A stretch of DNA of 64,000 bases, taken from assembly GCA_951406725.2 (NCBI GenBank), contig OX597842.1, positions 23,808,001 to 23,872,000 on the forward strand, given 5' to 3'. Position numbers and translations under genes: made by a program. The notes under the pieces are model-generated. The model made no database searches, was not told where the DNA came from, and worked only from the letters and a program-made list of their open reading frames with translations. Within the stretch, counting starts at the first letter, position 1. Every line of letters starts with the position of its first letter. Source of the DNA: Octopus vulgaris (taxonomy: Eukaryota). This document shows, one piece after another, positions 6,309 to 61,160 of the stretch.

Positions 6309-7286
<978 letters not shown>

Positions 7287-7450
7287 ACAAACAAATTAGG
7301 AAGAAAGACAAAAATGCGGGGAAAACTGAAATTCTGAAGTTGCGATTTTTGCCAATTTTTTTTCTTGTATCCGAATCTCCATAGCCGAAAAAAGTTGGGG
7401 AAGGGTCAGGTCACGTCTCCGCAATGTGCGCCGTTATTGTATTCACACAA

Positions 7451-13522: not shown

Positions 13523-14400
13523 AGAATAATTCGATGCTATGTTTCTTTCACCTGTGATCTTACTTCATATTTAAAACAGCCAATGTAAACTGTCAACTCC
13601 TTTGGAAAGTTATCCAAGCTTAATTAACCTGTAAAGTGATATTGCTGTTCTATCATTCAGAAGAAATATATTCCTGCTCTTTTCATAGATTATCTATTAT
13701 ATAAAATCCATTCTGTGTGTCTTCTAGGATCTCGGGCATCCTCCATCCAATTGCGCTCAAATTTGATATGTAGATACCGAAGGTATCAGGACGTGTATAA
13801 GTCTTGAAAAAATTACAAAAATCGATCGATAAAGCCGTGCGTTGCGATCAATACTATGCATACGTGAGAAAAATGCACGGTGTCTCAAATTTAGTTTAAA
13901 TCAGTGTTTCTCAAAGGGGAGGCCTATGGGACGGTCGGACAAGTTGTTTTGAGAAAATTTGGTTTAAATGTTTGACAACTCAGCACCGTCCATTGGACGT
14001 TGTGGGGGGTGGGTGAAGTTTTGCTCGTATTTATATAAAGAGGTTGATGTATTAATGAATGCTCCTTATAAATATATCATATTCCATTCGTTGGTGAAAG
14101 TTGATAAAAATATCAGAGGCACATCTGAATGAAGAAATTTCTTTTATGTCAACATGATGTGATATTCTGAAATAGAAAAAAAGAAGCAGTGAGATAAAGA
14201 GAATCATTAAACAACATAGTAATTCAACATTGCAAATCTTACAACATCAACACTGTTTTATTGTGAATTATTGTGAATTACAACAAAATGCATTTTGCTT
14301 TCGGATTTGGTTTGCAAGATTCTTTATATGAGTTTGTGTTGAAGCATGTTCTATTGTGTCTGGGGAGAGTCATTTTCTTTTTGTGTCTTATAATCTAATA

Positions 14401-15424: not shown

Positions 15425-18400
15425 TCACACGGTTCCTTGCACGCACAACACTCGTGCAACATGCTTCCGTCTCTTTTGGAACGTACACTCCGACAGACAC
15501 CTCTTCTCCAGCCACAGTTTCCTTTTCAAATGAAAAGAAAAAAAAGGATCGTAAATTGTGACCAGAGATAAAGTTGCCTGTCTTAATTCCTTTTATCCTA
15601 GTCTTCCATACTGCCTCTTTTGCTATTGCTACAACTGTGAGAAAACAATTCTTACCTTCGTTCATTAGAACTCCCGGTGGGTCAATTTTTACAATTGACA
15701 CAGTCGACAGCCGTACTCTTCCTTCGCCGGACAACAGGTGTTCAGCATAAGCCCACATTTCAGTTATCTCCGGTTACTGAACAATAGCGTGAGGGACGGT
15801 TTACCTGCCCCCCCCCCCGCATCTTGGACAGGTCGGCAACTGACGTTTACCATGTCTTGCAAGCTAATCCCAAATGGGCAAGGCACCTCTGTGGCATTGC
15901 CAGGTTAAGGACTTTTGGAAGTTGTCCAACGTTCTCAACCCGAATGTACGATGAAACAAGCTGTCCAGTTGAATAAATCTGAGACCTAGAGTCGACCCCA
16001 GGCCATCGTCGCATTCAGACTCTACCAACCCACTATATAAAATCCGTGTGGAACCCCCACCACTGGCGTTGCCCGAGCGCCGGAACAGCAAGAGGGCCTT
16101 ACGGCACTCTTTATGCTACTCACTCGACCTCAGTCTACGAGAACACCAGGCTTCCTGTTCGCAAAAACTCTTGAACTCAGGGAACATTTGTCTGGCTAGC
16201 AGAGACCACGCCCGTTCACTATCCAGGAGAATCCAGAGGTGCCTCAACCTCAACGCATGTCTGCGCATCATTAACCAAGGCATCCCTAAACCTCCCTTTA
16301 AAGGCTTTTGACAGCTGACAGAGCGTTTCACAAGTGGCGACCTGCCCTTCCACAAAAAGCGAAAGAGCTGTCTCTCCAACCTGATCAACCACGAATCTGG
16401 ACAGGGCACGACGGTCAGGTGGTAGGTAATGACCGATGCGATAAACACATTGGCCACCTCCGCCCTCCCCTTCAGGGATAGCCACCGCCAAGACCAGGTC
16501 TTGACTACTGCAGCCACCCTGCTCAATACCTCCGTCCAGTTCTGGAGGCCTGGTCCAAACCAGACTCCCAGCAATTTAACCGGTCCCTCCGTCCAGCGCC
16601 CAACAACGCTGTCTGAAGGCATCGACTTGCCAAACCAGGTGCCGAGCTGCAAGCCGACCGACTTTTCCCGGTTAATCTTTGCTCCTGCTACCTCCTCGTA
16701 AGCCTCAATAGTCTTACCTACTTCACGTAGGCGTGCTACTGTGGTTACACTAATAGTGATATCATCCGCGAAAGCCGTAATAAACTCCTCTAGTCCTGGT
16801 TCTCTCGGGATGCCACTCAACCTTCGCAGTAATGGCTCGAGAGCCATCACATACAAAAGTGGTGAAAGCGGACATCCTTGACGAACCGAGCGTTTGATGT
16901 AGAACGGCTTCGAAAGGAAACCGTTCACCCGAACTATCGAGTCAATGTTGTGGTACAAAGCGATAAACCACCTGAGGAAGCCAAGACCCAGGCCAAACCG
17001 CGCAAGTACAGTCGCTAGGTATCGATGGTCAACCCTATCAAAAGCTTTAGACTGGTCCATGCACCAATGCCCCACCTTTGCCAGATTTATTACCAACCCT
17101 CGCTATGGTATAGCGAATAAGATGGAGGGTATCCTGAATGGTTCTGCCTGGGATGGCACATGTCTGTGCCTCCCCGACTATACCATTTGCGAAACGCGCC
17201 AACCTTTTTGCTAGAACCTTGGCCAAAATCTTCACTTCTGCGTTTAACAGAGTGATGCGCCTGAAATTTTCTAGAACGTCCCCCTTGTCCGGTCCTTTCT
17301 GACCAACGTCACTACTCCCTGGCGCACAGATCTGGGGATAGACCCATTCTGTTTCCAGTTCACGTACACGTCAGTCAGTAGTTGCCCGAACAAGTCTGGC
17401 ATACATTTATACAGCTCGTACGGAAGACCATCAAGCCCTGGTGACTTACCCGCTTTATAATCAGCCAAAGCCTCCATCACCTCCTCAGGTGTGATTGGCC
17501 CTTCGCAAGACTCCGCATCCGACCCCGAGAGGCACGGCAGCCCGGCAAGAATGTCCTCGAGGGCTCTCCCACCACCAGGACAGCCGTCACCCCCGAACAT
17601 CTGGGCGAAGTACTCCCGAAAGACCTCACACATTTTCTCGGGTTCGTTTACCAAGACACCATTTTGATTCGTCAAAGACCGAATAGAGGAACTATTTCCT
17701 TGCCGAGCTCCCACCACTCGGGCCCATCCAGCGGCCTTGATTCCTTCACTTCCCATTGCACGTAACTTAGCTCTGGCAATACTTCCCATGTGGTGGGCTT
17801 CAAGATGCTGGTTTAACTCCAGTCTTTTCACCCTTGCTTGGTCTGCATTACCAGTCCTCCAGGCTTCTTCTAGTTCCTTAACTAGACCATCTCCTATTTT
17901 ATGTCCCTTCTTAGCTAAACTTATGCTAAACCTAATAGACTCATATTTGATGGCTCTTTTTAGGGCGTACCACCATTTGTTATTAATGATGGTACCTGTA
18001 AATGCCCTCTGTATTAACATCTTGATCCGCTTTCTGTACTCCTCAATCGCCAAAAGGGACGTATTGAGTTTCCAGTAGCCAGATCCCTGTCTATGCAACT
18101 TATCTACCGTCAGTTTACAGGTAACCATCTTGTGGTCACTGTAGCTGACTAGAAAAAACTGTGGACACTCAACTATGGACTTATCTTTTTCTCTAATTAA
18201 AATCCTATCTAGATATGTTCTGGTAGACCCATCACTATTTGACCACGTCCACTGTGAAGTGTTCGGGTGCTCCAACCTATATGGATCTGCTAGCTGAAAT
18301 TGACTTAGCAGATCACGAAAGCCTGGGTTACACTTTCTGTTCATGTTCGAGCTCGAGCCAACACAATCTGTGTGTGCTGCACATATTGTATTAGAGTCTC

Positions 18401-18805
18401 CTAACACTACTAGTGAATGCGACGTGGCTAGGAACTTTCCCAGGTCACAAAAATATTCAGTTTGCGGGCCAATAATGTTTGGTGTGTAAATAGCGACCAG
18501 CCTGATTGTCTTGCCACAACTGAATGTCAAGTCGAGAACGACCAGCCTGCCTTCTGGGTCTACCAACTTTTTCTCGGCTACCGGTTTCTTTTTAGTAGGA
18601 CCAACACCCCACCTCCTGCCCGACTCGGAGAAACGTATTTCTCGTAGCCGTTCAGGAGGGGCAGCAGACCTCTTGGCCCCTTCACCCGGGTTTCCGTTGC
18701 AACAATTACATCCAAATTTTTCGACCTGATATCATTTAGAAAGCGTCCTTGCTTCCAGCTTGACAACAGGCCACGAACATTTATACAACCAATGTGAATA
18801 GACAT
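15425..18805 (-). pseudogene. Tx1 ORF2 (AP endonuclease + reverse transcriptase), multiple frameshifts
   Basis: [72 protein letters not shown] spread over ORFs starting at 18805, 18566, 17235, 17096, 16091 and 15758. 3' end approximate. Confidence 0.88.
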
Positions 18806-18819
18806 AACTTACCTGTTTA

Positions 18820-20345
18820 ATCAGGATTGTCCGGTGGAGAGGAACCCTCCACCTTTTTTTGATCCAGGGTCGGAGGTGGACGGTCTTGGGAAATAGATTT
18901 GTCAAATCCCGTCTCACCACCGACACAGAATTATCAGGTGGAGGGGGAATCTCCACCTTTTCCTTTTCTCGCGGGATCGGGGCTGGTAATCCATGAAATA
19001 TCGACTTGTTAAAATCTAATCTCAATGAAGATACTGTCTTTCTGTATCTGTTTTGTAAAATTCTATGAGTCTTATTTGAGACTTCATATATGTCGTAATT
19101 GATAAATTCCTCTGAAAGGTTATCTATTTTTGTTACAGTCTTTATCAGTTGAATGTCTCTCATGAGCTCAGTATTTTTAGTATATACGGCTATTATGCCT
19201 TTTTCTTCTTTTTCTCTTCTGGCAGTCTTTTTTGGTCATTGTTCTGTAGTAGTCGCCGCTCTCGGCTGAGTTGCTGGTTGTATTTTCTTTTTGTTTGTTG
19301 TTTTTTCTCATCTGTTTCTTCTTTTTCTTCTTCCTCTTTGTCTTTTTTCTCCTCTTCCTCCTCTTCTGCATTTTCCTTGCAGCTCCTTCGAATGTGGCCT
19401 AATTGACCACATAAAAAACATCGAGGTTTTCGGCCCTCAACAAACACCACGAGGTTCTCCTCCCCTACCTCAATTTTCTCGGGAATTGCTTGAATTATTT
19501 TAGGGTCCGCTTGAATGAGAAGATTAATTGTTTGACCATCCCAGTGTGGGTTTTCCGTAGCGGTAGCCTGGAGGAAAGTAATTTTTTCTTCCTCTTTGAT
19601 TAGGACTGCCGCCAACAACCACATAGGATCCACTTCCGGGGGGACCCTTGTAATTTTTTATTCTGGACGTTCTCATCCCCATATAATAGGGGATGAGCTC
19701 CACGTCGTTCGTTTTCAGCGTTTCTACTGAGTTCTTGTGTGCTATTTCTTTATTGGTGAACCTTACTTCCACCGTTCCGAATTTCTTGCCTCTTCTCAGA
19801 TAAACTACGTCGCCCCATATTGGCTTTAAGCACTTTTCTATTTTCTCTTCTGACATTCTTTCAATTTTTCTTTTTTGTAGACAATATGTTTTGAAAATTA
19901 TTGTTTTTTGCTTTTCTTCTTGTAATAACTTTTGCGGAGGTTCAATTTTCACAACGTTGCCAGTTATTTTCATCATTTGGCTGTATTTCATAAAGTCGCT
20001 TTTATTCGTTGACAGCAGCCGGGTTCCACCCCCAGCAGCCAACGCAAAACTTTTTTTCCCATTTTTTGGTTCTGTCTGGATGCTAGGTACATCAATTATT
20101 CTTTTTGACACAATGCCTTTGTTCTCTGGCAAAGTCGGAAACTCTTCTGGTGAAAGTTCTGACGAGCTTTCAGACACATCTCCAAAAAAATCAAATATAT
20201 TATCTATTCTGCTATTCTTTCTTGTAGCGGGGGAAACCCTTATTTCCCTGTCTGTAGTTGGCTCCTCGCCGGACATGTATTTCCTCCTCTCAACAGGAGA
20301 AACAAGTATTTCTGCTCCAACGGTAGACTCCATGCTAGACGACAT
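18820..20345 (-). pseudogene. Tx1 ORF1 (gag-like, CCHC zinc knuckle), frameshifted
   Basis: ORFs 19524-20372 and 19193-19633 with RCFLCGQLGHIRRSC (CX2CX4HX4C) and an E/K-rich tract; located upstream of ORF2. Confidence 0.75.
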
Positions 20346-20523
20346 TCTTCCCCCCAAAGGGGGAATGAACAACGCGTGCTACTACAAGCACTAAGTGTTT
20401 TCAAATGAGAACTCCAACAGTTAAGTTATTCAACAGTTTAACAAGAAACAACAGTTATTAGAAACAGCAGTTATTAACAATATTAACACCAAGAAGCAAC
20501 AATTTTTACCACGAACATATGTG

Positions 20524-21963: not shown

Positions 21964-22125
21964 GGCGCAGGAGTGGCTGTGTGGTAAGTAGCTTGTTTAC
22001 CAACCACATGGTTCCGTGTTCAGTCCCACTGCATGACACCTTGGGCATGTGTCTTCTACTATAGCCTCGGACAGACAAAAGCCTTGTGAGTGGATTTGGT
22101 AGACGGAAACTGAAAGAAGCCCGTC

Positions 22126-22198
<73 letters not shown>

Positions 22199-23762
22199 GA
22201 GAGAGCTGTGTGTGCCATGTACAGGGACGCTGTTAGTAAGGTGAGGGTTGGCAACGAGTACAGCAAAGAATTCCGGGTGGAGGTTGGGGTCCACCAAGGC
22301 TCAGTCCTCAGCCCCCTCCTATTTATCATAGTCCTCTGGTGCAATAAACACTGAAAGTGCGCAGAGACCATCTTCCGTCACATTCCAGGGAGAAAAACTT
22401 GAAATAGTTGATAGTTTCCGTTACCTAGGTGACCAAGTCAGTAGCGGGGGTGGGTGTGCCGAAAGTGTAACTGCTAGAGTAAGAATAGCCTGGGCAAAGT
22501 TCAGAGAGCTCTTACCTCTGCTGGTGACAAAAGGCCTCTCGCTCAGAGTAAAAGGCAGACTGTATGACGCATGTGTGCGAACAGCCATGCTACATGGCAG
22601 TGAAACATGGGCTGTGACTGCTGAGGATATGTGTAAGCTTGCAAGAAATGAAGCCAGTATGCTCCGTTGGATGTGTAATGTCAGTGTTCATACCAGACAG
22701 AGTGTAAGTGCCTTGAGAGAAAAGTTGGACCTAAGAAGCATTAGATGTGGTGTGCAAGAGAGGCGTCTACACTGGTATGGGCACGTAGTAAGAATGGATG
22801 AAGATAGTTGTGTGAAAAAGTGCCACACCCTGGCGGTTGAGGGAACCTGTGGAAGAGGCAGACCCAGGAAAACCTGGGTCGAGGTGGTGAAGAACGACCT
22901 TCGCTCTTTAGGTCTCACCGAGGAAATGACCAGAGACTGAGACCTTTGGAAGTATGCTGTGCGTGAGAAGACCCGGCTGGACAAGTGAGGCCATAACCCA
23001 TGGCCCCTACCTGGAACGTAGTCAGTGCACCTATGCACACCTTCCTTCTTGGGACACATAACTCTACTTGTGAAGACCTGTTGAGGCAAGTGAAAATGGA
23101 CAAAATCAAAAGCAAACTCGATGAACATTAATGGAATTTGTAGTTTTGTGGTACCAGTGCCGGTGGCACATACGAAAACCATCCGAACATGGCCGTAGCC
23201 AGTACCGCATTGACTGGCCTCCGTGCCGGTGGCACGTAAAAAACACCATCCGAGCGTGGCCGTTCGCCAGCCTCGTCTGGCACCTGTGTCGGTGGCACAT
23301 AAAATCACCCACTACACTCTCGGAGTGGTTGGCGTTAGGAAGGGCATCCAGCTGTAGAAACACTGCCAAATCTGACTGGCCTGGTGCAGCCTTCGGGCTT
23401 CCCAGACCCCAGTTGAACCGTCCAACCCATGCTAGCATGGAAAGCGGACATTAAAAGATGATGATGATATATATATATACGACGGGCTTCTTTCAGTTTC
23501 CGTCTACCAGAAGCCCGGCGTATATATGTATATATATATATATATGCGTGTGTGTGTTTGTGTGTCTGTGTTTGTCCCCCTAGCATTTCTTGACAACCGA
23601 TGCTGGTGTGATTATGTCCCCGTTACTTAGCGGTTCGGCAAAAGAGAACCGATAGAATAAGTACTGGACTTACAAAAATAATAAGTCCCGGGGTCGAGTT
23701 GCTCGATTAAAGGCGGTGCTCCAGCATGGCCGCAGTCAAATGACTGAAACAAGTAAAAGAGT
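21964..23762 (+). mobile_element. SINE-B interrupted in its internal (TA)n by an RTE insertion
   Basis: 5' half 21964-22130, 3' half ~23510-23762, short inverted SINE piece 23478-23508. Confidence 0.75.
22197..23466 (+). mobile_element. 5'-truncated RTE-clade LINE
   Basis: [58 protein letters not shown]; 3' UTR with ~62-bp repeats and (GAT)n tail; internal deletion near 22337. Confidence 0.85.
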
Positions 23763-24202
23763 ATATCACTCGTTAAAAAATAATAATCATGAATAACAAA
23801 TAAAGTAGAATTAAAAGTCTAAAATATTTTTGAAATGAAGGACAAATGAGAAAGGATTTGGGGTAGAGTCAGCAGTTTCAGAGAAGTGTATGACCTCTTA
23901 ACGGAAGGCAGCTTGGAAATTTGACATTGAAGGTTGCTGTTGTTTAGCCACAGGTTTCATTGAGCCTCGATTGAGTAGTTCTTTCTTAGTCAGAGAACTG
24001 CAGCCATTATCATACCATATTCAGACCGTGTGTTATAAGAACCACATTATCCAAACGGTTTTTATAAACGGTGAAGCGTTTCGTCTGATAAATATTTAGA
24101 GGAGATTATATTTTGAGCAACTGTTCAGAGATTAGTCTCCCTCCTTTGTATGTAATATAATAATGTATGGCGAAAGAAGACACCCAAACCAAGTAGATGA
24201 TT

Positions 24203-24505
24203 GTTGTTTTCCTTCTCGAGCCATGTCTGGCTCATAAGGGCTGGTTTCCCCGGTTTCTTGGCGTATATGTTCCCCACCTGGACGGGACGCCGGTCCTTCA
24301 TGGGTGAGCTGCAAGATGCAAGAGGAAAGAGCGAGAGAAAATTGTGGCGAAAGAGTCAGCAGAAGTTTTGCCATTATCTTCTGCCGGAGTCGCGTGAAGC
24401 TTAGGTGTTTCACTCATGAACACACATATCGCCCGGTCTGAGATTCGAACCCGCGAACCCTCGACCGCGAGTCCGCTGCTCTAACCATAAGGCCATGTGC
24501 CTCCA
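24203..24505 (-). mobile_element. tRNA-derived SINE family C with 13-bp TSD
   Basis: Minus-strand head GGAGGCACATGGCCTTATGGTTAGAGCAGCGGAC..GGTTCGAATC; TSD CAAGTAGATGATT at 24190-24202 and 24506-24518. Copies at ~46735-47038 and ~56612-56860. Confidence 0.85.
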
Positions 24506-24684
24506 CAAGTAGATGATTACTTTTCAAAACAGTTAGGTGCAGATTAATAAACTTAATGTAACACCAACAAGTGACTTGTCTTTACTTGAAACTGCACCCA
24601 TAATTAAGAGCCAAGCTGTCCATCGTGATGCACATCTACACGTTCCACTTATCAAATGTATCTATGTAGATGTTTTATTTCAAA

Positions 24685-24991
24685 CTAGCAGTATCGCCCG
24701 GCGTTGCTCGGGTTTGTAAGGGAAATAACTATATAAGCATTTTTAGAGAGTTACTTCCCTTATATAAACCGAGCAAAAATCATTAAAAATGCGGAAAAAT
24801 GATGGTAAATATATTTTTAAATCGTAGACTCATTGTAGACGTGCGCTAATACCCAGAAGAGCTCGATATGAATGACGACTATAAGATACCCGCTTCTGGT
24901 TAAACTGCACCGCAAAATGTGGGAGTAGTTAGGAATCTAAATCGTAGGAGGCAGAGTTTCACACACACAACTTCAATTTTATATATAAAGA
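24685..24991 (-). mobile_element. non-autonomous Helitron-like element
   Basis: Minus strand A|TCTTTATATATAAA ... CCCGAGCAACGCCGGG hairpin ..CTAG|T, no TSD. Confidence 0.7.
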
Positions 24992-25425
24992 TGAGAGAGT
25001 CAGGCAACTTATTGAAAGTCCTGAAATTTTATATTAAACCGCAGCATTTCTCAATACATATCTACAACCTAATTATCATTCAAAATGGCTTAGCCTTACT
25101 CTAGGAAATTTCAACTTGACTGAGATGCAAAAGAGATATTTTCATCAAACTTGGCATGAAGGAAGGAAAGACTATTTGGTTTCTCAAGAAGTCTTTTTTT
25201 GCCTTAACTTTCTATCTTTATTTCTTCTTTTGCTGGTGTCTCAAATTTAGGCTAAATCAGTGTTTCTGAAAGGGGAGGCATATGAGACGGTCGGACAAGT
25301 TGTTTTGAGAAAATTTGGTTTAAATGTTTGACAACTCATCACCGTCCATTGGACTGGGGCGTTTTGCTCGTATATATATATATATATAACCTAATGAGTA
25401 TATATATATATATATATATATATAT

Positions 25426-28400
25426 GGATGCACCTTCTTGCATCCTAAACTGTGCTAAACTTCTGTGTCACTAAGGATGTGCCTGAACCCAGAATGCAAC
25501 CACCACCATCTGAAGGGCACAAAACGATCGCAAAATAAATATAAACAGCAACAGAGGAGATCTACGACAACAACAAAGACAAAATACAACCACGTTTCCC
25601 CTCCTACAATCAAACAACGAAGACAGAACCATGAAAAAAACCATAACACCAAATAACACCAACATGAAATATGTATCCTCTGACCAAGTGACAAACCAAA
25701 GAGGTAACTCTTTTTTACTGACTTACGTAGAAAATATGAAGGCCGATCTAAGCCAGGAGATCCAACGAGCTATCAGCAACCACCTATGCAAATCACAAGG
25801 ACCACACACCCACTACCAACAAGAAAATCATACACACACAGCTCCATACAAGAACTACCCACATTGTTACCACTGAACAACATAAAACATAACTTAGAAC
25901 AATGCAAACATCAAACTTCCCTTACCTCAACATTCCTGTTAAATGTACGTGGCATCAACCCATCAATTATTGCCCAAAAATGGAAGATCCCATATATAGA
26001 GAGTTGGCTTGCCGAAACGGCACATTGCTTCCCTTTCTTTATCCTTACCGAGACTCACCTGAACAACACCCATATGGACGCCTAGGTGAAAATAAAAGAT
26101 TTCACCATTGTTCGTGCGGATCGCACAGACTGAAATAAGGGAGGGACAACCATCTTTATCCATGACTCCTTTTCACTTGATGCCAAAGACATATTTTCCA
26201 ATGGCTATTGTGAATCGGTATTACTATTCAGCAAGGCCAAGGACATAATCATTGTTGGTCTTTACAGGCCTCCCCAAGCACCTCTAAAGAGCTTTGAAGA
26301 GTGCCTCAGCAAAGTCAAATCCTTCCTTCGGAAGTACAACTCCGGAAACATAGTAGTGATAGGTGATTTTAACCTCCCTCATGTGAACTGGCCCACAAAT
26401 ACTCTGAAGTTAGGCAAATGCTCTACATCAGATAGAGCAGCAGCAGAACTGCTCTTTAATCTAATGGATGAATACTTCCTGACTCAGCTACTGCTCAAAC
26501 AAACGAGACAGAATAAAACGATCTTGGATCTGGTATTGACCAATCACTCTAGCTTCGTTCACAGTATTTCAGTTGAAAAAACTCTCCTCTCAGACAACGA
26601 CATGATACTCTGCAATTTTAATTCCCGACATATAAAAACCAAACCAGCCAATCCCACTCCATGGCACTCATTTGACAACATAAACTTCCACAAAGCGGAC
26701 TGGGGAGCAATCAGAAAGGATCTGTCTTTCATCGACTGGTCTTTTACTCTCAATTCCACCCATATTGAGACCGCATGGCAGCACTTTGAAAACATTGTCA
26801 CTTACAAATGCTCTAAACACGCTCCCACGAAATCTACTAACACAAACAGAAACCGGCTCCCTAAAAAGAAAAAAACACTCATCAGGCGCATCAAAAGACT
26901 CAACAAAAAAATCAACCAATTAAAATATTCCCACACACAACATCCACATTCAACAACAATGAAAAGGCTAGAGCTGGAAAAACTTCATCTGCAGACCGAC
27001 ATGAAAACCTCCATTGAAAATCAAAGAGCTGTGGAGGAACAGTGGGTAATCAAAAACATCAAACAGAACCCAAAAGTGTTCTATTCTTATGCAAATAAGC
27101 ATAAAACCACTGTCTCACCCATTGGGCCATTGACTGATGATAACGGCATTCCTCAACACGATGCTAAAGAAATGGCAGAAATACTGCAGAAACAATACTG
27201 CTCTGTCTTTAGTGTCCCCACTGACATTGACGTAAGAGAAGCGAACGAAGTTGACTCCCAATATAAAATCTCAGACATAACCTTCATTGCCACTGACATC
27301 ATAGCAGCAATAAATGAGGTCAAATACTATTCTGCTGTAGGCCCTGATAGATTCCCCGCTAGTCTCCTGAAGGAATGTAGACACCAACTTGCAGTCCCTC
27401 TGACCAACCTCTGGAGAAATTCGTTAGACGCAGGTTATATACCGAAACAGTTTCTATCCCAGTCAGTCATCCCGGTTTTCAAACAGGGAAACAGATCCCT
27501 CGCACTCAACTATCGCCCAATCTCACTCACCTCCCACATCATTAAAGTGTTTGAAAGAGTGTTAAGATCAAGGATAGCTGACTTCCTGGAGACCCACAAA
27601 CTCCTAAATGCAAATCAGCATGGCTTTCGCTGTGGCAGGGACTGTCTAACACAGCTCTTAAACCACATTGAAGATGTACTCAAAGCCTTGCGAACATGTT
27701 CGAATTCTGATGTCATATATCTTGACTTCAGTAAAGCATTTGACAGGGTAGACCATAATATCCTACTCTCAAAATTGGGAAACGTTGGAATCCGAGGAAA
27801 AGTTCTACACTGGATTATGTATTTCCTGGCGAATAGAACATAACATGTTGTAGTTGATGGAGTCCACTTAAGCCCAGCAAAAGTCACCAGCGGTGTCCCC
27901 CAGGGGACTGTCTTGGTTCCGCTACTCTTCATAATTTATATAAACGACCTTTCCAGTGTCGTACATTACTGCAAAGTGAAAATATTTGCTGATGACACTA
28001 AGCTCCAGCAAATCGTCAATGAAGAAGCAGACTGAACTCAACTCCAGTCTGATCTATATGCTGTGAGTCAATGGGCAGACAGAAACAAAATGCAACTGAA
28101 TGAGGGAAAATTTGAGCTGATGCATTTTGGAAGAAATTCCTCACTAAAACAGCCATACTCTCTTCCTTCAGGGGAACCGCTCACAGCCTCTAACAATATC
28201 AGAGACCTGGGTGCAATTGTTGATGACGATCTCAGTTGGAGTGCACACATCAACAAGAAGGTCGATATAGCTCGTAGGATGAGTTCCTGGATCTTAAGAA
28301 CTTTCCGGTCCAGAGAACAAGGTGTCGTCATACCACTTTTCTCCTCCTTTGTACGGCCACACCTCGAATACTGCTGCCCACTGTGGTCTCCCCATACAAG

Positions 28401-28957
28401 ACAAAGCATCTTGAGGATTGAATCACCCCAGAGGGCACTCACTAAACGAATTGAAGGCATGGCTGCTCTCGATTATTGGGATCGCCTTAAAGCCTTGAAA
28501 CTCTACTCTCTCCAGCGTCGCCGTGAGCGGTACATCATTTGTACGATGTGGAGAATATACCGCCAACTTTGCCCAAACGACCTTAACATTAGCTTCAAGG
28601 TTCATCCAAGACTGGGACCATGGGCCATACGTCCCCTGCCCAATTCAAGATCACAGCATACATGCACACTGCAACATAATTTCTTTTCCTCAACAGGCCC
28701 TGCCCTATTTAACATTGTCCGAAAGAGATCAAAGAGGAAAAGGATCCGATCAACTTTAAACGGAGTCTGGATAGATTCCTTCAAAGAATACCAGATAAGC
28801 CACCCATAAATGGATACAACTCACTCAACAAAAACTCACTACTTGAATGGACCATAAACAAAACTTGACTTAAACAGGATTCAAATAATCCTATCAGGTG
28901 GTGCTATTAAGTTAGACATGGCCTGGACCAATCTTTGGTCAAAACATATCTAAGTTT
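25426..28957 (+). mobile_element. CR1-group LINE, 5'-truncated, decayed (ORF1 C-terminus + APE-RT ORF2)
   Basis: Cys/His ORF1 remnant (FLHPKLC..CNHHHLKG), [53 protein letters not shown]; several in-frame stops. Related to the element at 35001-38172. Confidence 0.88.
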
Positions 28958-28971
28958 ATACATATACATAT

Positions 28972-29848
28972 ATCATCATCATCGTTTAACGTCCGCTTTC
29001 CATGCTAGCATGGGTTGGACGGTTCAACTGGGGTCTGGGAAGCCCGAAGGCTGCACCAGGCCAGTCTGATCTGGCAGTGTTTCTACAGCTGGATGCCCTT
29101 CCTAACGCCAACCACTCCATGAGTGTAGTGGGTGCTTTTTATGTGCCACCGACACAGGTGCCAGACGAGGCTGGCGAACGGCCACGCTCGGATGGTGTTT
29201 TTTATGTGCCACCGACACAGGTGCCAGACGAGGCTGGCGAACGGCTACGCTCGGATGGTGTTTTTTATGTGCCACCGGAACGGAGGCCAGGCGAGGCTGG
29301 CACGGCCACGATGGGATGGTGTTTGTTACGTGCCCACAGCACGGAGGCCAGTTGATGCGGTACTGGCTATGGCCACATTCGGATGGTTTCCTTATGTGTC
29401 ACCAGCACTGGTACAACAAAGATACAAATTCCATTGATGTTCATCGATTTTGATTTGATTTTCACTTGCCTCAACAGGTCTTCACAAGTGTCCCAAGAAG
29501 GAGGGTATGCACAGGTGGATGACTACGTCCCAGGTAGGGGCCATGGATTATGGCCTCACGTGTCCTGCCGGGTCTTCTCGCGCACAGCATACTTCCAAAG
29601 GTCTCGGTCTCTGGTCATTTCCTCAGTGAGACCTAAAGCGCGAAGGTCGTTCTTCACCACCTCGTCCCAGGTTTTCCTGGGTCTACCTCTTCCACAGGTT
29701 CCCTCAACCGCTAGGGTGTGGCAGTTTTTCAAACAACTATCTTCATCCATTCTTACTACGTGTCCATACCAGCGTAGACGCCTCTCTTGCACACCACATC
29801 TGATAATTCTTAGGTCCAACTTTTCTCTCAAGGCACTTACACTCTGTT

Positions 29849-29849
<1 letters not shown>
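28972..29849 (-). mobile_element. 5'-truncated RTE LINE
   Basis: [19 protein letters not shown] (ORF 29556-29999) plus 3' UTR and (GAT)n tail; same family as 22197. Confidence 0.85.
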
Positions 29850-30601
<752 letters not shown>

Positions 30602-30705
30602 ATATTATATTAGAGACAAAACCACTATTATGCAAATCAAACAAAGAAAGACTTAAGCCAATACATAAAATAATTTATATAAAGTAAAATTTAACAATTA
30701 TAAAT

Positions 30706-30759
30706 AACCACTACGATCGTTTCGTGTCAGCACATCTTTGAGACATTCTTCAGGTGGTT
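30706..30759 (-). ncRNA. type-I hammerhead ribozyme motif, intact core
   Basis: Reverse complement of 30925-30978. Confidence 0.8.
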
Positions 30760-30924
30760 TCAAAACCTAAAATATAAGATATAAATAATGTAAATAAAAA
30801 TTTACTTATAATAAACTCTATTATTAAATATGATTATATCGAAATCGGTTATAATGTTAATAATAGAGTTTATTATAAGTAAATTTTTATTTAGATTATT
30901 TATATCTTATATTTTAGGTTTTGA

Positions 30925-30978
30925 AACCACCTGAAGAATGTCTCAAAGATGTGCTGACACGAAACGATCGTAGTGGTT
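30925..30978 (+). ncRNA. type-I hammerhead ribozyme motif, intact core
   Basis: AACCAC-CTGAAGA-aTGTC(..)GACAc-GAAA-CGATCG-TA-GTGGTT: 6-bp stem I, palindromic stem III ACGATCGT, GUA cleavage triplet. Confidence 0.8.
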
Positions 30979-31168
30979 ATTTATAATTGTTAAATTTTAC
31001 TTTATATAAATTATTTTATGTATTGGCTTAAGTCTTTCTTTGTTTGATTTGCATAATAGTGGTTTTATCTCTAATATAATATAATATAATATTTTACTAT
31101 AAAATTGGATTCAATCCTAAATCTGATTTGTCTGTGTAAATTTGGATTTATTCCCTAATATTTATTAT

Positions 31169-31169
<1 letters not shown>

Positions 31170-31261
<92 letters not shown>

Positions 31262-31634
31262 TACATATATATATACATACATATATATATATATACATAC
31301 ATATATATACACATACATATATATATACATATATATACATACATACATATATATACATACATATAATATATATACATATATATATACACACATACATATA
31401 TATATACATATATATATACATATATATACATACATACATATATATACATACATATAATATATATACATATATATATACATACTTATATATATATATACAC
31501 ATATATATACATATATATATACATGTATATACATATATATATATACACATATATATATATACATATATATACACATATATATATACATATATATATATAC
31601 ATACATATATACACACATATATATATATATACAC

Positions 31635-31665
<31 letters not shown>

Positions 31666-31860
31666 CACACATATATATATATATATACATATATATATAC
31701 ATACATATATATATACTTACATATATATACATACATATATATAAATATATACATATATATATACATACATATATATATACTTACATATACATACATACAT
31801 ATATATAAATATATATGTACATACATATATATATATATATACATACATATATATATATAC

Positions 31861-31900
<40 letters not shown>

Positions 31901-32106
31901 ACATATATATACATACATATATACATACATATATATATACATACATATATATATACATATATATACATACATATATATATACATATATATATATACATAT
32001 ATATATATACATATACATATATATATATACATATATATACATATACATATATATACATATACATATATATACATATATATACATATATATATACATATAT
32101 ATATAC

Positions 32107-32161
<55 letters not shown>

Positions 32162-32180
32162 TATATACATACATATATAT
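31170..32180. repeat. (TA)n/(TACA) microsatellite
   Basis: ~1 kb TA-rich tract. Confidence 0.95.
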
Positions 32181-33645
32181 ATGACCTCACACATCAGCAA
32201 GGTCATGGAACGAATAGTCAGAAGGAAGCTGATCACCTTCCTTGAAGAGAATGACTTGCTGCCCGACACCCAACATGGTTTCCGACCAGGGAGAAGCTGT
32301 TTAACTCAGCTCCTACAACACTATGACTGGGTGCTGAAACGGCTGCTCAACCACTCAAATGTGGAAGTGATATATCTCGACTTTGCGAAGGCCTTTGATA
32401 AAGTCGATCATGGAATGATATGTCACAAACTGCGTGATCTCAACATAGTTGGAAAACTGGGAGAATAGCTTCATGACTTTCTGAAGGATAGAAGTCAGGT
32501 GGTAGTAGCCAATGGGGCCACCTCCATTAACACACAAATAGTGAGCGGTGTTCCGCAGGGCACTGTTCTGGGACCACTACTGTTCATAATGGCCCTCTCA
32601 GACATGCCCTCAACCACGCAGAGAGCCACGATCACAAGTTATGCAGATGATACAAAAGTGTCACAGGCAATACAGAACCCTGAGGACACTAAACACCTGC
32701 AATGTGAGCTGGACGAAATATACAAGTGGGCTGAAAAGAATAGCATGCAGTTCAATGCTGGAAAGTTTCAAGCTTTATACTATCAGCATGCAAAACTGAA
32801 TGCAATACCCAATGAATACACTGGACCCGGAGGGATTGCAATCCCAGAGGCACAATCAGTGCGTGACCTGGGTATTCACATGAGTGATGACGCGACCTTT
32901 CATGTACATGTTGCTAAACTGACAATGAAATGTAGACGGCTGGCTGGATGGATTCTTAGAACCTTTAGAACAAGAGAACAAGAAACCATGATGGTCCTCT
33001 GGAAGACACTTGTCCTAAGCCACTTTGACTATTGCTCTCAGCTATGGTCACCATCCAGTGTCAAGTTGATCACAGAACTTGAGGCGATCCAACGAAGCTA
33101 CACAAAGAAGATAGCCTCTATGCAGAATGTAAGCTACTGGGAAAGACTCAAGAGATTAAAATTATATTCCCTGGAGCGTAGGCGGGAAAGATATGCCATA
33201 ATATACATCTGGAAGATCCTGGAGGGAAGTGTCCTGAACTTTGGCATCGAGAGTTACGCAAATGCCAGAACTGGGCGCCACTGCGTGGTGCCTAGGACTC
33301 CAAACCTGCCATCAAGATGTAGGACAAGATTCTGTGATAGCCTGGGCTTCCGAGGCCCACAGCTCTTCAATATCCTCCCGAAGAACCTGAGAGACCTGCA
33401 TGGGGTGGATACAGATGTCTTTAAAATGAAGCTGGATCTCTTCCTGTCAGGTGTCCCAGATGAACCAACTTCACGGCAGGAGGGGCAGAAGAGGGCAGCT
33501 GCATCGAACTCTCTCATGCACCAAATAGCAGTTGCTAGAAAGCCTCCATGAAGTGAAACCAAGTAGCAACACCAAATGGCGGTGCCCCAGCATGGCCACA
33601 GCTCATAAGCTGAAACTAGAATCAATCAATCAATCAATCAATCAA
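32181..33645 (+). mobile_element. 5'-truncated CR1-group LINE (second family), RT with one in-frame stop
   Basis: [26 protein letters not shown] at 32466, [24 protein letters not shown]; (TCAA)n tail. Confidence 0.88.
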
Positions 33646-35000
<1,355 letters not shown>

Positions 35001-38000
35001 CTTAGAATAACTTAGAAAGGTTTTTGACCAGTATTGGCCCAGGCCATGTCTAACTTAATAGCACCACCTGGCGAAGTCTTTCAGTTCAGGATTTGGGCAC
35101 CAAGGCCCATTCGAGCAGAGAGTTATTGTTTGCGGAGACATATCCGGGTGTGGATGGTTTGTCCGGTACTGTTTGAAGGAATTTGTCCAAAGACTTCTTG
35201 AATTTTGTGTGGTCAGTTTCTTTTTTGACGTGTCCTGGTGTAATGTTGAAGAGAGCGGGTCCAATTGAGGTGAAATAGTTGTGCCGTATTGTCGTTATGT
35301 GATGCGATTTAGATTTTTGTTGTGGACGGATGGCACGTGGTCCAAGCCTTGGATGCATTTTGAAGGTGATGCCAACATCATTCGGACAGTGCTGATGGAA
35401 TATTTTCCACATCATACAGATAATGTAGCGTTCACGGCGTCGTTGGAGTGAATACAATTTCAGCTTCTCTAGTCTACCCCAGTAGTCAAGGTCTGACATG
35501 CCATCTATCTTTTTTGTGATTGACCTTTGGGGAGCTTCAATTCTCATAATATTTTGTTTTGTGTAGGGAGACCACAGTGGACAGCAGTATTCAAGGTGGG
35601 GTCGGGCAAAAGTGGAGAAGAGAAGGATAATAGCGTGGGAATCTCTCGACTGGAAGGTTCTGAGAATCCAGGAACACATTCTGCGGGCCATGTCAACTTT
35701 GCTGCTTATATGTGTAGCCCAGCTTATGTTGTTGTCCACTGTTACTCCCAGGTCTCTGATGTTGTCGGATGCCATGAGAATTTCTCCAGAAGGAAGAGAG
35801 TATGGGAGTTTCAGAGCGTCCTCCCTTCCAAAGTGGATCAGTTCGAATTTGTCTTCATTTAGCAACATGTTATTCTTTTCCGCCCATTGGACAACAGCTA
35901 GTAGGTCTGACTGAAGGTTTATTCGGTCATCCACGCCATTGATGACCTTCTGGAGCTTGGAATCATCAGCGAAGGTTCTGATGTTGCTGTGTTTGATGGT
36001 GTCAGTAATATCATTTATGTAGATGATGAAGAGAAGTGGGCCCAACACAGTGCCTTGTGGGACACCACTGCTGACTTTGGCTGGGCTGGATTTGACTCCT
36101 TCGACTACAACATGTTGGGTTCTGTTAGAGAGGAAGCACTTGATCCATTGCAGCAGCTTTCCAGTGACACCAATATTGGACAGCTTTCTCAGAAGGATCT
36201 TATGATCAACCCTGTCAAAGGCCTTGCTGAAATCAAGGTAGATGACATCAGTGTTGGAACCCTCTCCCAAGGCTCTCAAAATGTCATCAAAATGATGCAG
36301 TAGCTGCGTCAGGCAATCTCTCCCATTACGGAATCCATGCTGGTTGGGGTTCAGCATATTATGACTCTCAAGGAAGTGAGTCATACGCGATCTCAGCACC
36401 CTCTCAAATACCTTGATGATATGAGAGGTGAGTGAGATTGGACGGTAATTCACGGCAAGCGATTTGTTTCCTTTTTTGAAAACTGGGACAACAGACTGGG
36501 ATAGAAGGTCTTCTGGTATATATCCAGCATCCAATGAGTTCCGCCACAGATTGGCTAGAGGGGGTGCAAGTTGGTTTTGACACATCTTCAAGACACAAGC
36601 AGGGAACCCATCGGGACCTACTGCTGAATTATGCTTCATTTCCTTTATTGCTGCTAAGACATCAGGAGCGCCAAATGTTATGTCCGATAAAGTGTATTGG
36701 GGAGTAACATCACTGATACAGCCCAGATCAGTCATATCAGGATTGCTGAAAACAGAGCAATATTGTTTCTGCAATATTTCTCCCATGGTTTTGGCATTGT
36801 CTTGAAGAATACCATTTTCATCAATCAGAGGGCCAACAGTAGAACCAGTGACTCTGTGTTTTTTTGCAAATGAAAAGAACACTTTGGGATTGAGTTTGAT
36901 CTTCTCAATGGCCCAGGCCTCTTCAGCTCTTCGCTGACTATTGATGATAGACATCATGTTGTTTTGGAGTTTATGTTTTTTAATCTCTAGCGACGAGATG
37001 GCAGTCAGGTTGGTGTGTTGCTGTTGACAGTATTTCAGCATGTTGATCTTTTTGTTGATTCTTTTAATTTTCCTTATGAGAGATTTTCTATTTCTAGGGA
37101 TTCGACACTTAGATTTGTTTGCAGATCTTAATGGGGTGTGTCTTGCACATATGTTCGTGATGGTGTCTACAAGTGACTGCCAGGACTTTTTGATGTTAGT
37201 GGGTGTGTATGTGTGCGTGAAGGACCAATCGACTTGTGCAAGATCATTATTGATCGCTTCCCAGTTTGCATTGTGGAAATCCATAGTGTCAAATGGATGA
37301 ACAGGAGGGATGACATTTGTTTTGCATTTTGGCCAGTGAAATCTCAGATCACAGAGAACCATGTCATGGTCGGAGAGTAGGGTTTTCTCCACTGCAATAT
37401 TGTGGATAGTATCAGTGTGATTGCTGAAAATTAAGTCTAAGACGTTTTTGTGACATCTCGTTGGTTCGAGTACCAGTTGGGACAAGAAGAAGTCATCCAT
37501 GAAGTCAAGAAGCGATTCCACTGCCTCCCTGTCAGGGGTTGAGAGAGAAGAACCTGGCAGCAGACTGTTTATAGACCAGTCAACCCCGGGAAGGTTGAAA
37601 TCTCCCATCATTAAAATGTTGTCAGGTTGACACTGCTGAATGAAACACTTTATGCTGTTGAGGCATTCCTTGAAGCATGGTAGGGGCGTTTGGGGTGGTC
37701 TGTAGAGCCCAACTACTGTTAAGTTGTTGGTTTGACTGAATACAGCGACTGCTTCGCAGTATCCATTCGAAAATATGTTCATGGCTTCTGTTGAGAATGA
37801 ATCATGGACATAAATGGCAGTCCCACCCTTTCTTCTGCCAACACGATCAGCACGAATGGTTTTGAAATTTTTAACTTTCACCTCGGCTTCCAAGTGGAGG
37901 TCACTAAGATGGGTTTCAGTGAGGACGAAGAAAGGGATGTGGTTTGGATGGGCCTCGACCCAGTCCTCCAGGAATCTTATCTTCCATTTTTGTGTATTGG

Positions 38001-38172
38001 TGGAAGGGCTGATGCCTTGGGCATTAAGCAGAAATGTTGAGGCGAGAGTGGATGGTTTTAATTGTTTTGGTGATTTGTTTATTTGATTGCTTTTTAATGG
38101 CATGTGTAGTGGGGTAATAGTGGTGGATGGCGGTGGGTGATAGCTCGGATGTTTTTTTCCAGTTCTTTTGCT
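35001..38172 (-). mobile_element. young CR1-group LINE, 5'-truncated at end of ORF1
   Basis: Intact ORF2, 3' stem-loop and TTCTAAGTTA-type tail, flanked on both sides by (TA)n. Confidence 0.9.
35086..38103 (-). CDS. LINE ORF2 polyprotein (AP endonuclease + reverse transcriptase), ~1005 aa, uninterrupted
   Basis: From ATG at 38103 (MPLKSNQ): [74 protein letters not shown]. The first ~70 aa of the track ORF are microsatellite. Confidence 0.9.
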
Positions 38173-38186
38173 AGATATATATATAC

Positions 38187-38217
<31 letters not shown>

Positions 38218-38540
38218 CATATATATATACATACATATATATACATATATATATATATATACACATATATATATATACATATATATATATATACATATAT
38301 ATATACATACATATATATACATATATATATATATACATATATATATACAATACATATATATATATATACACATGCATATATACATACATATATGTATTTA
38401 TAATATATATATACATACATATATTTATATATATGTATATATATACATATATATATATATATGTATATACATACATATATATACATGCAAATATATACAT
38501 ACATATAAATACATACAAACATATATATATATATATATAT
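38173..38540. repeat. (TA)n/(TACA) microsatellite
   Basis: TA-rich tract. Confidence 0.95.
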
Positions 38541-41285: not shown

Positions 41286-41825
41286 TATAGAGAGAAATGG
41301 ATGGTGATGGAGATGTATGAGGACATACACAAAAGGTAGTGGTGGTGGGGGAATATTAGTGGTACAGAGGATAGAGGGGGATGTTTCATAGAAGTGTGAG
41401 GGGCTTATGAATGTGTGTGTGTTACTATATCCTTGCTTTGAGACTGTGTGATAGTTGTGGGTGTCACTGCCATGCAAGCAATGTCCATCGCCAATCTGAC
41501 ATAAAAACATGTTAGGTCATGGGGAAATATTTTAGTTTGAAACAGGTGAAGGTTGGCAACAGGAAGGACATCTGGACAGTGAAAAATTCACTTCAATAAA
41601 TATCATCTCACCAATGAGAGATTGGCAAATGTGGACATGGAGAACAATGATGACAGATGACTGGTATGGTTTGTCTCTCATGAAGGTTTAAGGAAGTAGT
41701 TACGCTGCTTCTATAAGCAAATGATTTGCCAAATGTTTCAATGATATGGCTTCTCTCATGTATGAAACCATTTGAGACTAGACAAAGTGCTATTTTTGGA
41801 AAATGATTTACCACAGGTATTACAG

Positions 41826-43439
41826 TCATGTGACTTCTTTTGTATGAATGCGTTTGTGCCTAGTCAGGTGACCATTTTGAGAAAATGATTTACCACAGAT
41901 ATCACAGTGATATGGCTTCTCTCCTGTATGAATACGTTTGTGCTGAGTTAATTTACCATTTTCAGAAAATGATTTACCACAGATATCACACCGATAGGGC
42001 TTCTTTGCTGTATGAATATGTTTAGGTTTAGACAAGTGGCCACTATGAGAGAAGGATTTACCACAGATATCACAATGATATGGTTTTTCCCCAGTATGAA
42101 TACGTTTATGGACAGTCAATTCAATTTTTTGAGAAAATGATTTACCACAGATATCACAATGATATGGCTTCTCTCCTGTATGAATGCGTTTGTGCCGAGT
42201 TAAGTGACCATTTACAGAAAATGATTTACCACAAATATCACAATGATATGGTTTATCCCCAGTATGAATACGTTTATGGACAGTCAATTCAATTTTTTGA
42301 GAACATGATTTACCACAGATATCACAATGATATGGCTTCTCTCCTGTATGAATGCGCTTGTGCTGAGTTAAGTGACCATTTTCAGAAAATGATTTACCAC
42401 AGATATCACAATGATATGGCTTCTCTCCTGTATGAATGCGTTTGTGACCAGTCAAGGTACTGGCGTAAGAAAATGATTTACCACAGATATCACAGTGATA
42501 TGGTTTCTCTCCTGTATGAATGCGTTTGTGCTGAGTTAATTTACCATTTTCAGAAAATGATTTACCACAGATATCACAATGATATGGCTTCTCTCCTGTA
42601 TGAATGCGTTTGTGCTGAGTTAAGTTACCATTTTCAGAAAATGATTTACCACAGATATCACAGTGATATGGCTTCTCTCCTGTATGAATGCGTTTGTGCC
42701 TAGTTAAATAACGATATCCAAAGAAGGATTTACCACAGATATCACAGTGATATGACTTCTCTCCTGTATGAATGCGTTTGTGCTGAGTTAAGTTACCATT
42801 ATCAGAAAATGATTTACCACAGATATCACAATGATATGGTTTTTCACCAGTATGAATACGTTTATGGACAGTCAAATCAATTTTTTGAGAAAATGATTTA
42901 CCACATATATCACAGTGATATGGCTTCTCTCCTGTATGAACACGCTTGTGTCGAGTTAAATAACGATATTCAGAGAAGGATTTACCACAGATATCACAGT
43001 GATATGGCTTCTCTCCTGTATGAATGCGTTTGTGCTGAGTTAAGTTACCATTTTCAGAAAATGATTTACCACAGATATCACAATGATATGGTTTTTCCCC
43101 AGTATGAATACGTTTATGGACAGTCAAATCAATTTTTTGAGAAAATGATTTACCACAGATATCACAATGATATGGCTTCTCTCCTGTATGAACACGCTTG
43201 TGCTGAGTTAAGTTACAATTTACAGAAAATGATTTACCACAGATGTCGCAATGATATGGCTTCTCCCCTGTATGAATGCGTTTGTGAATAGTTAAGTTAC
43301 CATTTTGAGAAAATGATTTACCACAGATATCACAATCATATGATGCTTTGCCCTTTTCATTCTTCCCCTCATCAGAAAAATCAATTTCTTCAGATTCTCT
43401 TTTACATTCAACTTCACTCCGATATAATTCATTTTCCAT
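41826..43439 (-). CDS. C2H2 zinc-finger protein, 18 tandem fingers, no KRAB (~537 aa from ATG 43439)
   Basis: Open frame with a short acidic N-terminus (MENELYRSE..) followed by 18 fingers (finger 16 has H->P). Upstream acceptor CTCTTTCATTTCAG at 44014; decayed fingers after the stop. Confidence 0.88.
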
Positions 43440-43752
43440 AATTTTCCTTTTTCTCGTCACAGTACACAAAGGTTTTCCTTCTTCTCGTATATTGCTCTTA
43501 CCAAATATTTTTACTGATATATCTCCATCAAAAGTGTTCTTTGTTAATATCTGAAGATGCTGCAAACTGCCTTCTTAATTACCTTAACTCATTAACATTC
43601 AAATTACTGTCAAATGTAATGATTATTTATTCAAATTCTACTCAATTAATCATTCATTATCTTATTGCTTTAAGATTTCAACGATGTGATTCTTTATGTT
43701 TATAAGACATTGCATGGTGAGTGTAAGAGGCCAGATGTGGGCAGTTTTAAGA

Positions 43753-52945: not shown

Positions 52946-53045
52946 NNNNNNNNNNNNNNNNNNNNNNNNNNNNNNNNNNNNNNNNNNNNNNNNNNNNNNN
53001 NNNNNNNNNNNNNNNNNNNNNNNNNNNNNNNNNNNNNNNNNNNNN
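52946..53045. other. assembly gap (100 N)
   Basis: Run of n. Confidence 1.

Positions 53046-59925: not shown

Positions 59926-61160
<1,235 letters not shown>

Follow-up and report, generated by a model that had tools for sequence, protein, structure and literature searches.

A palindromic pair of hammerhead motifs in the Octopus vulgaris genome, probably a solo Penelope-like terminal repeat with an inverted partner

In insertions of the endonuclease-bearing (EN+) Penelope-like elements (PLEs), inverted partner copies with truncated 5' ends, one-sided tails, and microsatellite targets are described as standard (PMC8557442, PMC3846280). The minimal hammerhead ribozymes of PLEs depend on dimer formation and cut weakly in vitro (PMC4209133; reviewed in PMC6765202). 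Hammerheads on both strands have also been described: S. mansoni has dual motifs on opposite strands, separated by 100-700 bp (PMC4209133), and Penelope-13_HM carries them on both strands by way of an inverted 5' copy (supplement to PMC8557442). Within the Hydra clade of PLEs, (TA)n targets are listed for 26 of 27 families in the same supplement, and 15 of the 26 hammerhead rows in its File S2 carry a mismatched pair at the base of helix II, U·U in 14 and U·C in one (the Hydra-clade counts were made by eye from this supplement). The reverse transcriptase (RT) and endonuclease motifs given for this clade are RWK, DKT, and CxCX5C, with no CCHH (PMC8557442). Because Neptune and Naiad elements also favour microsatellites, a (TA)n target is not exclusive to Hydra; Naiads lack canonical hammerheads (PMC8557442).

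In this study, we analyzed a palindrome near the middle of a 64,000-nt stretch of Octopus vulgaris DNA, hereafter called the window, which carries one hammerhead motif on each strand. At a probability of about 0.8, we read the locus as the solo terminal repeat (pLTR) of a Penelope-like retrotransposon of the endonuclease-bearing kind, lying in a TA microsatellite, with an inverted partner that was made at insertion. An original prediction from the letters of the window had already proposed that a pLTR of a Penelope-like element is paired here with an inverted 5' part, and this proposal is supported by the head-to-head arms, the rarity of the right junction among family copies, and the published architecture.

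Layout of the palindrome and its surroundings

The features discussed below are as follows, in coordinates of the window.

29851-30601, no strand: (TA)n / (TACA)n tract to the left of the insertion, the likely target
30602-30860, minus: family-type ("native") pLTR copy, read from loose contig ends and depth arithmetic
30706-30759, minus: hammerhead of the left arm, identical to that of the right arm, with C3 at 30753 and a predicted cut after 30712
30828-30856, minus: 29-nt spacer, the unmirrored 5' part of the native copy, deep in three sequencing runs
30857-30860, no strand: junction, a self-complementary TTAA of 4 nt found both at the native 5' end and where the inverted arm begins
30857-31082, plus: inverted partner copy (right arm), its 5' end 29 nt shorter, with 2 mismatches in 226
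30879-30917, plus: possible short intron of 39 nt, with GT at 30879, a pyrimidine tract, and AG followed by G; mirror at 30767-30805
30925-30978, plus: type I hammerhead of the right arm, from a structure descriptor, folding, and family variation
31008-31062, plus: deepest-covered 3' segment, common to diverged sister families; mirror at 30622-30676
31057-31066, plus: second copy of the 3' strand of helix I (the decoy), from predicted folds
31083-31172, plus: one-sided extension, a (TAATA)n remnant to 31092 and then 80 unique bases
31173-32182, no strand: (TA)n / (TACA)n tract to the right of the insertion

Each of the two arms (30602-30827 and 30857-31082) measures 226 bp, and they differ at two positions (30617/31067 and 30790/30894), and the spacer of 29 nt lies between them, so that the near-identical inverted arms of the original prediction are borne out in full. 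Beyond the arms, the mirror symmetry continues in TA-like letters, with one gap, to 30591/31092. Starting near 30860 (5' end), the native copy takes in the spacer and the left arm and ends at 30602 (3' end). The absence of an open reading frame from the palindrome was likewise confirmed: all six frames of 30828-31172 are short, and on neither strand does any of them stay open for long. The claim that the palindrome is embedded in (TA)n holds on the left, where the arm abuts the repeat, but the right arm is first followed by the 90-nt extension. Within the (TA)n / (TACA)n tract on the left, a target-site duplication cannot be told from the repeat itself.

The extension is either the element's tail or target-site DNA. 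It received no cover from the family contigs described below, which left the last 110 bases of 30828-31172 uncovered. Part of it (31093-31147) matches 49751-49801 on the minus strand weakly (76% over 55 nt; none of 150 shuffles was as good). This match begins exactly where the mirror symmetry ends, and its partner adjoins a zinc-finger gene, has no arm beside it, and lies outside the stretch common to the paralogous segments. The ribozyme stands between the copies of a weak direct repeat (30869-30903 and 30980-31014; 74% over 35 nt, offset by 111 nt), probably an AT-rich chance similarity (E 2.6).

The locus shares with published EN+ PLE insertions the head-to-head pair of a direct and an inverted pLTR, an inverted copy that is shorter at its 5' end and overlaps the direct copy, a one-sided extension, and a microsatellite target that masks any target-site duplication. 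It differs from the cases given in PMC3846280 and PMC8557442 in that the overlap is 4 nt versus 15 nt in Pen2a, and the junction has no significant palindrome, where A. vaga has one of 18-38 bp; published tails measure 30-40 nt (PMC8557442), and the extension 80-90 nt. Moreover, no reading frame is attached to it, unlike the EN+ PLE insertions with which it was compared. The palindrome is explained by a known PLE insertion pattern and is no new two-ribozyme device.

A linked RT or GIY-YIG reading frame, which the original prediction had suggested looking for, was not found among 140 frames of the 64-kb window; GIY-YIG in particular had no match among these low-complexity-filtered frames of at least 75 amino acids. 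The RT matches that the window does contain belong to separate LINE-type frames, unlinked to the palindrome.

The surroundings are rich in repeats. Several LINE-type RT frames and long TA tracts occur in the window, together with a cluster of C2H2 zinc-finger genes, some of them frameshifted, with common flanks (6600-7300, 12500-13600, 41800-43600, 47300-49600, and 60800-61200). A stop-free frame of 1103 amino acids on the minus strand (35086-38397), the first part of which is TA repeat, has endonuclease and RT domains and looks like an intact LINE; broken relatives lie at 25708-28809 and 32186-33551. A further broken element on the minus strand (16116-20378), which we take to be L1/Tx1-like, has a zinc knuckle in its first frame and a fragmented RT frame. 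A tandem array of a 63-nt unit (29131-29334; 3.3 copies) adjoins an RTE-like fragment, and 52946-53045 is an assembly gap of exactly 100 N.

The hammerhead motif and its family

When both strands of the 64-kb window were searched with a structural descriptor, these two hammerheads alone were found, and none appeared in 100 Markov-shuffled windows. In the plus-strand motif, helix I pairs 30925-30930 with 30973-30978 (6 bp) and is followed by CUGAAGA (30931-30937); helix II pairs 30939-30942 with 30956-30959 (4 bp) and is opened by an A·C mismatch between 30938 and 30960 (positions 10.1 and 11.1); GAAA stands at 30961-30964. Helix III (30964-30971) is self-complementary, ACGAUCGU, as had been noticed originally, and UA follows at 30971-30972. 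The order of the type I core (CUGANGA, GAAA, and NUH, closed by helix I) is present in both arms. The G10.1-C11.1 pair that should open helix II is absent, A·C standing in its place in both arms. An alternative register with G10.1-C11.1 would take two extra bases and a C·C mismatch, and its stability is lower (-4.0 vs -5.2). The Rfam hammerhead models gave no match at the gathering score or at E up to 10. The description of each arm as carrying a canonical type I hammerhead therefore stands as to the type and the number, one per arm, but not as to "canonical". An Rfam match to MIR7533 (103 bits against a gathering score of 230) only reflects the long hairpin and was set aside.

By folding, a double-hammerhead dimer reaches -25.4 kcal/mol versus -5.3 for the monomer, and the preferred fold of the monomer (-9.1) is off-pathway. 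This difference fits the dimer-dependent ribozymes of PLEs and, as far as modelling goes, supports the original prediction of a dimer-type ribozyme with a cut after 30972. The best explanation of the motif is that it would be a conserved dimer-type hammerhead of the parent family, in which helix III pairs between two RNAs.

Among described hammerheads, the motif most resembles those of the Hydra clade, as judged from its sequence; no parent protein that would assign the clade was found in the window. It shares with the Hydra rows the type I order, a first core of 8 nt, an extra nucleotide before GAAA, a mismatch under helix II, a helix II of 4-5 bp, a palindromic AC...GU helix III, and (TA)n targets. 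It differs from them in its A·C mismatch (in none of the 26 rows), in a perfect palindrome of 8 nt against mostly 9-10 nt, and in a longer loop II. With the minimal metazoan PLE hammerheads described in PMC4209133, it shares CUGANGA plus an extra base, a palindromic helix III, dimer dependence (here predicted), and U-rich and AU-rich flanks, and it is unlike them in lacking the consensus G10.1-C11.1 in the better-supported register and in its helix I of 6 bp. Like the animal non-LTR retrozymes, it is short, AT-rich, non-coding, of type I, and related to pLTRs (PMC7229834; bioRxiv 10.64898/2026.07.22.740005). Retrozymes, however, are head-to-tail tandems that release circles (PMC7229834), whereas the palindrome is a head-to-head pair and cannot do so. 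No head-to-tail hammerhead tandem was found in 29000-32400, and no such joints are listed among the family contigs; the label "retrozyme-like" in the original prediction is therefore not supported.

The letters AUGUCU that follow CUGAAGA (30938-30945) also open helix II in the published octopus ribozyme Hydra-1_Obim, the rest of which differs, and in the palindrome's ribozyme they form an off-pathway hairpin. Identity with Hydra-1_Obim, the one published octopus Hydra element, was rejected because helix I, helix III, and the 3' end differ by eye. Identity with the published octopus Naiad and Hydra elements more generally was also rejected, five exact motifs having no match in the supplement to PMC8557442, in which line breaks or divergence could hide matches. 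An ATG at the start of helix II, considered as the start of a reading frame as in the anole Poseidon, opens a frame that closes at 30971-30973, all six frames being short.

Contigs from public sequencing runs show copies of the element. The run search listed 24 runs, 20 of them with part of the stretch, from 8 studies and three species labels. Our family evidence consists of contigs from four of the 24 runs (X1, X4, X6, and X7) placed on 30828-31172: 1233 from X1, 344 from X4, 325 from X6, and 7 from X7. The first three runs are DNA-like, and X7 is guessed to be an RNA run; none of the runs listed with the stretch is on record as RNA. The family is high-copy and occurs in runs of three species labels, and its copies appear to be dispersed, as their loose ends differ; the palindrome thus carries a hammerhead-bearing terminal repeat of a multi-copy family. 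In X1, the summed depth is about 22,000-28,000 over the ribozyme and up to 1.83 million near 31040, a measure that adds overlapping contigs and is not a copy number. The family was found described neither in the literature searched nor, by the five motifs, in the supplement to PMC8557442 (Repbase and Dfam, which may list it, were outside the scope), and so far as we could find it is an undescribed family with a known insertion pattern. Exact patterns of the ribozyme and the deep 3' segment had no match in viral or metagenome contigs.

The original prediction staked itself in part on conservation of the core and stems among genomic copies, and these are conserved in all the variants listed, while loop II varies. 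The ribozyme variants listed at 5% or more comprise three substitutions and six indel rows at seven distinct sites in 54 nt (7 of the 19 indel rows lie outside this listing). All seven sites fall in loop II or at 11.1 and none in the core or at paired helix positions, a distribution with a probability of 0.0025 if the sites were independent, a figure that overstates the case. A substitution at 30960, which turns A·C into A-U, makes up 26% of the depth in X1, 14% in X4, and 11% in X6. Loose ends at 30956 mark subfamilies with a longer loop II, and an X1 row at this position keeps the 4-bp helix II despite the longer loop, which speaks for the A·C register and against that with G10.1-C11.1. In one X7 contig, the 3' segment common to the families is joined to a sister hammerhead motif, seen in its 3' half, with helix III reading ACAAUUGU; the change is two-sided and preserves the palindrome. 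Another X7 copy starts at 30938, just past CUGAAGA, with microsatellite-like letters before it, and is thus truncated inside the ribozyme.

The 55 nt of 31008-31062 have 25-70 times the summed depth of the ribozyme, and sister families differ upstream of the segment, where several loose ends lie. The segment may be where the element's protein binds or starts.

Origin of the mirror

Is the mirror a property of the whole family, or was it built at one insertion? All three DNA-like runs cover the spacer deeply (summed depth 6497 in X1, 5731 in X4, and 966 in X6, the last apparently a single contig), and we at first read this as a palindrome that spreads whole. That reading was dropped on the loose ends and the rare right junction. 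In X1 and X4, contigs match up to 30860 and then continue into other AT-rich sequence. In X6, contigs start at 30857 and are preceded by the reverse complement of the first 11 bases of the spacer, i.e., by the left-arm junction; they include a diverged copy at a depth of 95.7. Ends at 30857 and 30860 reproduce the binned depth (6549 predicted vs 6560 seen in X4), and the depth able to cross the right junction is at most 18.5 of 5754 in X4, 427.5 of 6497 in X1, and 194.4 of 965.8 in X6. This reading of the junction uses the binned contig depth and 22 of 110 loose-end rows, and other pairs of start and end fit as well, though more poorly. None of the listed contig pieces spans the right junction, which rests on the assembly. 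The depth arithmetic and the loose ends together imply that the family's own sequence is the left arm, the spacer, and TTAA, on the minus strand. The right arm is then most likely an added copy that starts at TTAA, the mirror having been built at insertion.

The event seems fairly recent, in agreement with the original prediction. The two differences in 226 correspond to about 1.2 Myr (95% 0.15-4.4) at a borrowed octopus rate, with the calibration as quoted in PMC13282606; conversion between the arms would make this age an underestimate. Both arms carry the same minority variant upstream of the ribozyme (at 30906, X4 has a depth of 31.5 and X1 of 467, with thousands on either side), which suggests that they stem from one template lineage or that one arm was made from the other.

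How would the mirror have arisen? The element's GIY-YIG/RT protein may have nicked the TA tract, and, primed by the nick, reverse transcription would have run from the AT-rich 3' region of the element's RNA across the hammerhead as far as about 30860. At the 4-nt TTAA, the second arm would then begin. In a fold-back route, to which we give about even odds, the end of the cDNA would pair back at TTAA and copy itself. This would explain the variant common to both arms directly, and it would require the 80 unique bases to be target DNA. Self-priming has been proposed for rotifer Penelopes (PMC3846280). In a double-priming route, which we consider somewhat less probable than fold-back, a second cDNA from the other target strand would start more downstream, and the two ends would anneal at TTAA; such a start would also make the one-sided tail. 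An anole PLE cuts and extends both target strands, with two RT starts defining the tail (PMC11167929), but the 30-40 nt of published tails fall short of the extension seen here. Repair or conversion after insertion takes the small remaining weight. Priming by fold-back is weakened in that the spacer has no significant hairpin: a native hairpin there was rejected, since 399 and 611 of 1000 shuffles were as stable and 947 of 5000 as self-complementary. A literature search judged by titles and the openings of abstracts found nothing on twin priming with PLE inversions.

Three other explanations have to be weighed against a mirror built at one PLE insertion. The parent might have been a non-autonomous, retrozyme-like derivative without a reading frame that borrows a PLE protein, the locus being a monomer with the usual inverted partner. 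The element's lack of a frame and loop II indels of lengths not divisible by three would agree with this, and animal retrozymes are reported to derive from pLTRs and to include dispersed monomers (bioRxiv 10.64898/2026.07.22.740005). Nevertheless, we hold it to be improbable, for retrozymes are defined by head-to-tail tandems, of which the contigs list no joints, and the continuation past 30860 matches nothing in the 345-nt element above chance. Hydra-clade hammerheads, moreover, also lie in non-coding 3' ends (PMC8557442), so that a lack of coding is expected either way, and a truncated end of an autonomous element would look identical to the non-autonomous PLE of the original prediction.

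Still less probable is that the family itself is an old unit that spreads whole, in which two diverged ribozyme arms stand head to head about a central promoter, and that the arms were homogenised at this locus. The spacer depth in the three runs and the several hammerhead subfamilies speak for such a unit, and PLE pLTRs can carry 5' palindromes and possibly two-way promoters (PMC3846280). The continuation past 30860 is also loosely like the start of an arm by eye, but over its 24 bases the likeness lacks significance (2591 of 20000 shuffles reach its score), so that it was rejected as a diverged mirror arm, and the right junction of the window is rare in the family. We regard as the least probable a fold-back artefact of assembly or library preparation that doubled one real copy. 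A near-perfect mirror within microsatellites whose right junction is spanned by no listed contig piece is what such an artefact might leave; the arms, however, have two independent differences, the mirror ends at the element's own 3' boundary with different DNA on its two sides, the layout equals the published PLE architecture, and the X4 depth would allow for about one copy across the right junction. We therefore retain the solo pLTR with an inverted partner made at insertion.

RNA from the locus and meaning of the insertion

The sense directions of the two hammerheads point outward, and read-through RNA from either side has an antisense arm first. The original prediction had cleavage competing with the formation of long double-stranded RNA. 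In read-through RNA, no such competition is predicted, since the antisense arm, made before the ribozyme, pairs with the whole of it: 54 of 54 ribozyme bases are paired at full length, and all are paired at every 3' end tested. In the full hairpin (-347.8 kcal/mol), helix I has a probability of 0.00. Two motifs on opposite strands cannot form a dimer within one RNA; they could meet only in trans, from RNAs that start at the centre.

RNA of a single arm is predicted to misfold as well. The decoy (31057-31066) captures the 5' strand of the ribozyme with a predicted probability of 0.995-0.999, and without it (30915-31050) the probability of the native helix I is just 0.03. The exact 8-mer of the decoy recurs in 65 of 20000 shuffles, and some such repeated 8-mer in 84 of 3000. 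From the hairpin of 226 bp in read-through RNA and the decoy misfold in single-arm RNA, the hammerhead at the palindrome is most likely a silent passenger, as modelled. The decoy also sits at the end of the segment most widely common to sister families. It is conceivable, though we think it unlikely, that it serves the pLTR as an off switch, which would block cleavage until the element's protein binds the 3' segment and displaces it. If true, this would offer an RNA mechanism for the protein-assisted cleavage reported in an anole PLE and would tie cleavage to the start of reverse transcription. Based on predicted folds, the decoy is a lead and not a finding.

By analogy with Penelope of D. virilis, the 39 nt of 30879-30917 are a possible short intron, read from AT-rich motifs. 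The D. virilis intron of 75 nt begins 46 nt downstream of the transcription start, and its end is at helix I (PMC2377424). In the native copy, the GT lies 55 nt from the junction, and the pyrimidine tract and AG followed by G end 7 nt before helix I. Such a pair of donor and acceptor arises in 264 of 20000 shuffles, and the family's indels upstream of the ribozyme lie mostly between the two sites. An intron, if real, would place the junction near the 5' end of the RNA.

As a single locus, the palindrome is ordinary retroelement debris, and its value is as a test case. For the making of head-to-head ends by PLEs, self-priming has been proposed (PMC3846280), and the cutting of two strands with two RT starts has been shown (PMC11167929). 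A young family such as this one, which is plentiful in at least three species labels and whose 4-nt junction is sharp, could tell fold-back from double priming. With every insertion of this kind comes a perfect hairpin of roughly 226 bp, which, if transcribed, would be a likely substrate for RNA editing or silencing.
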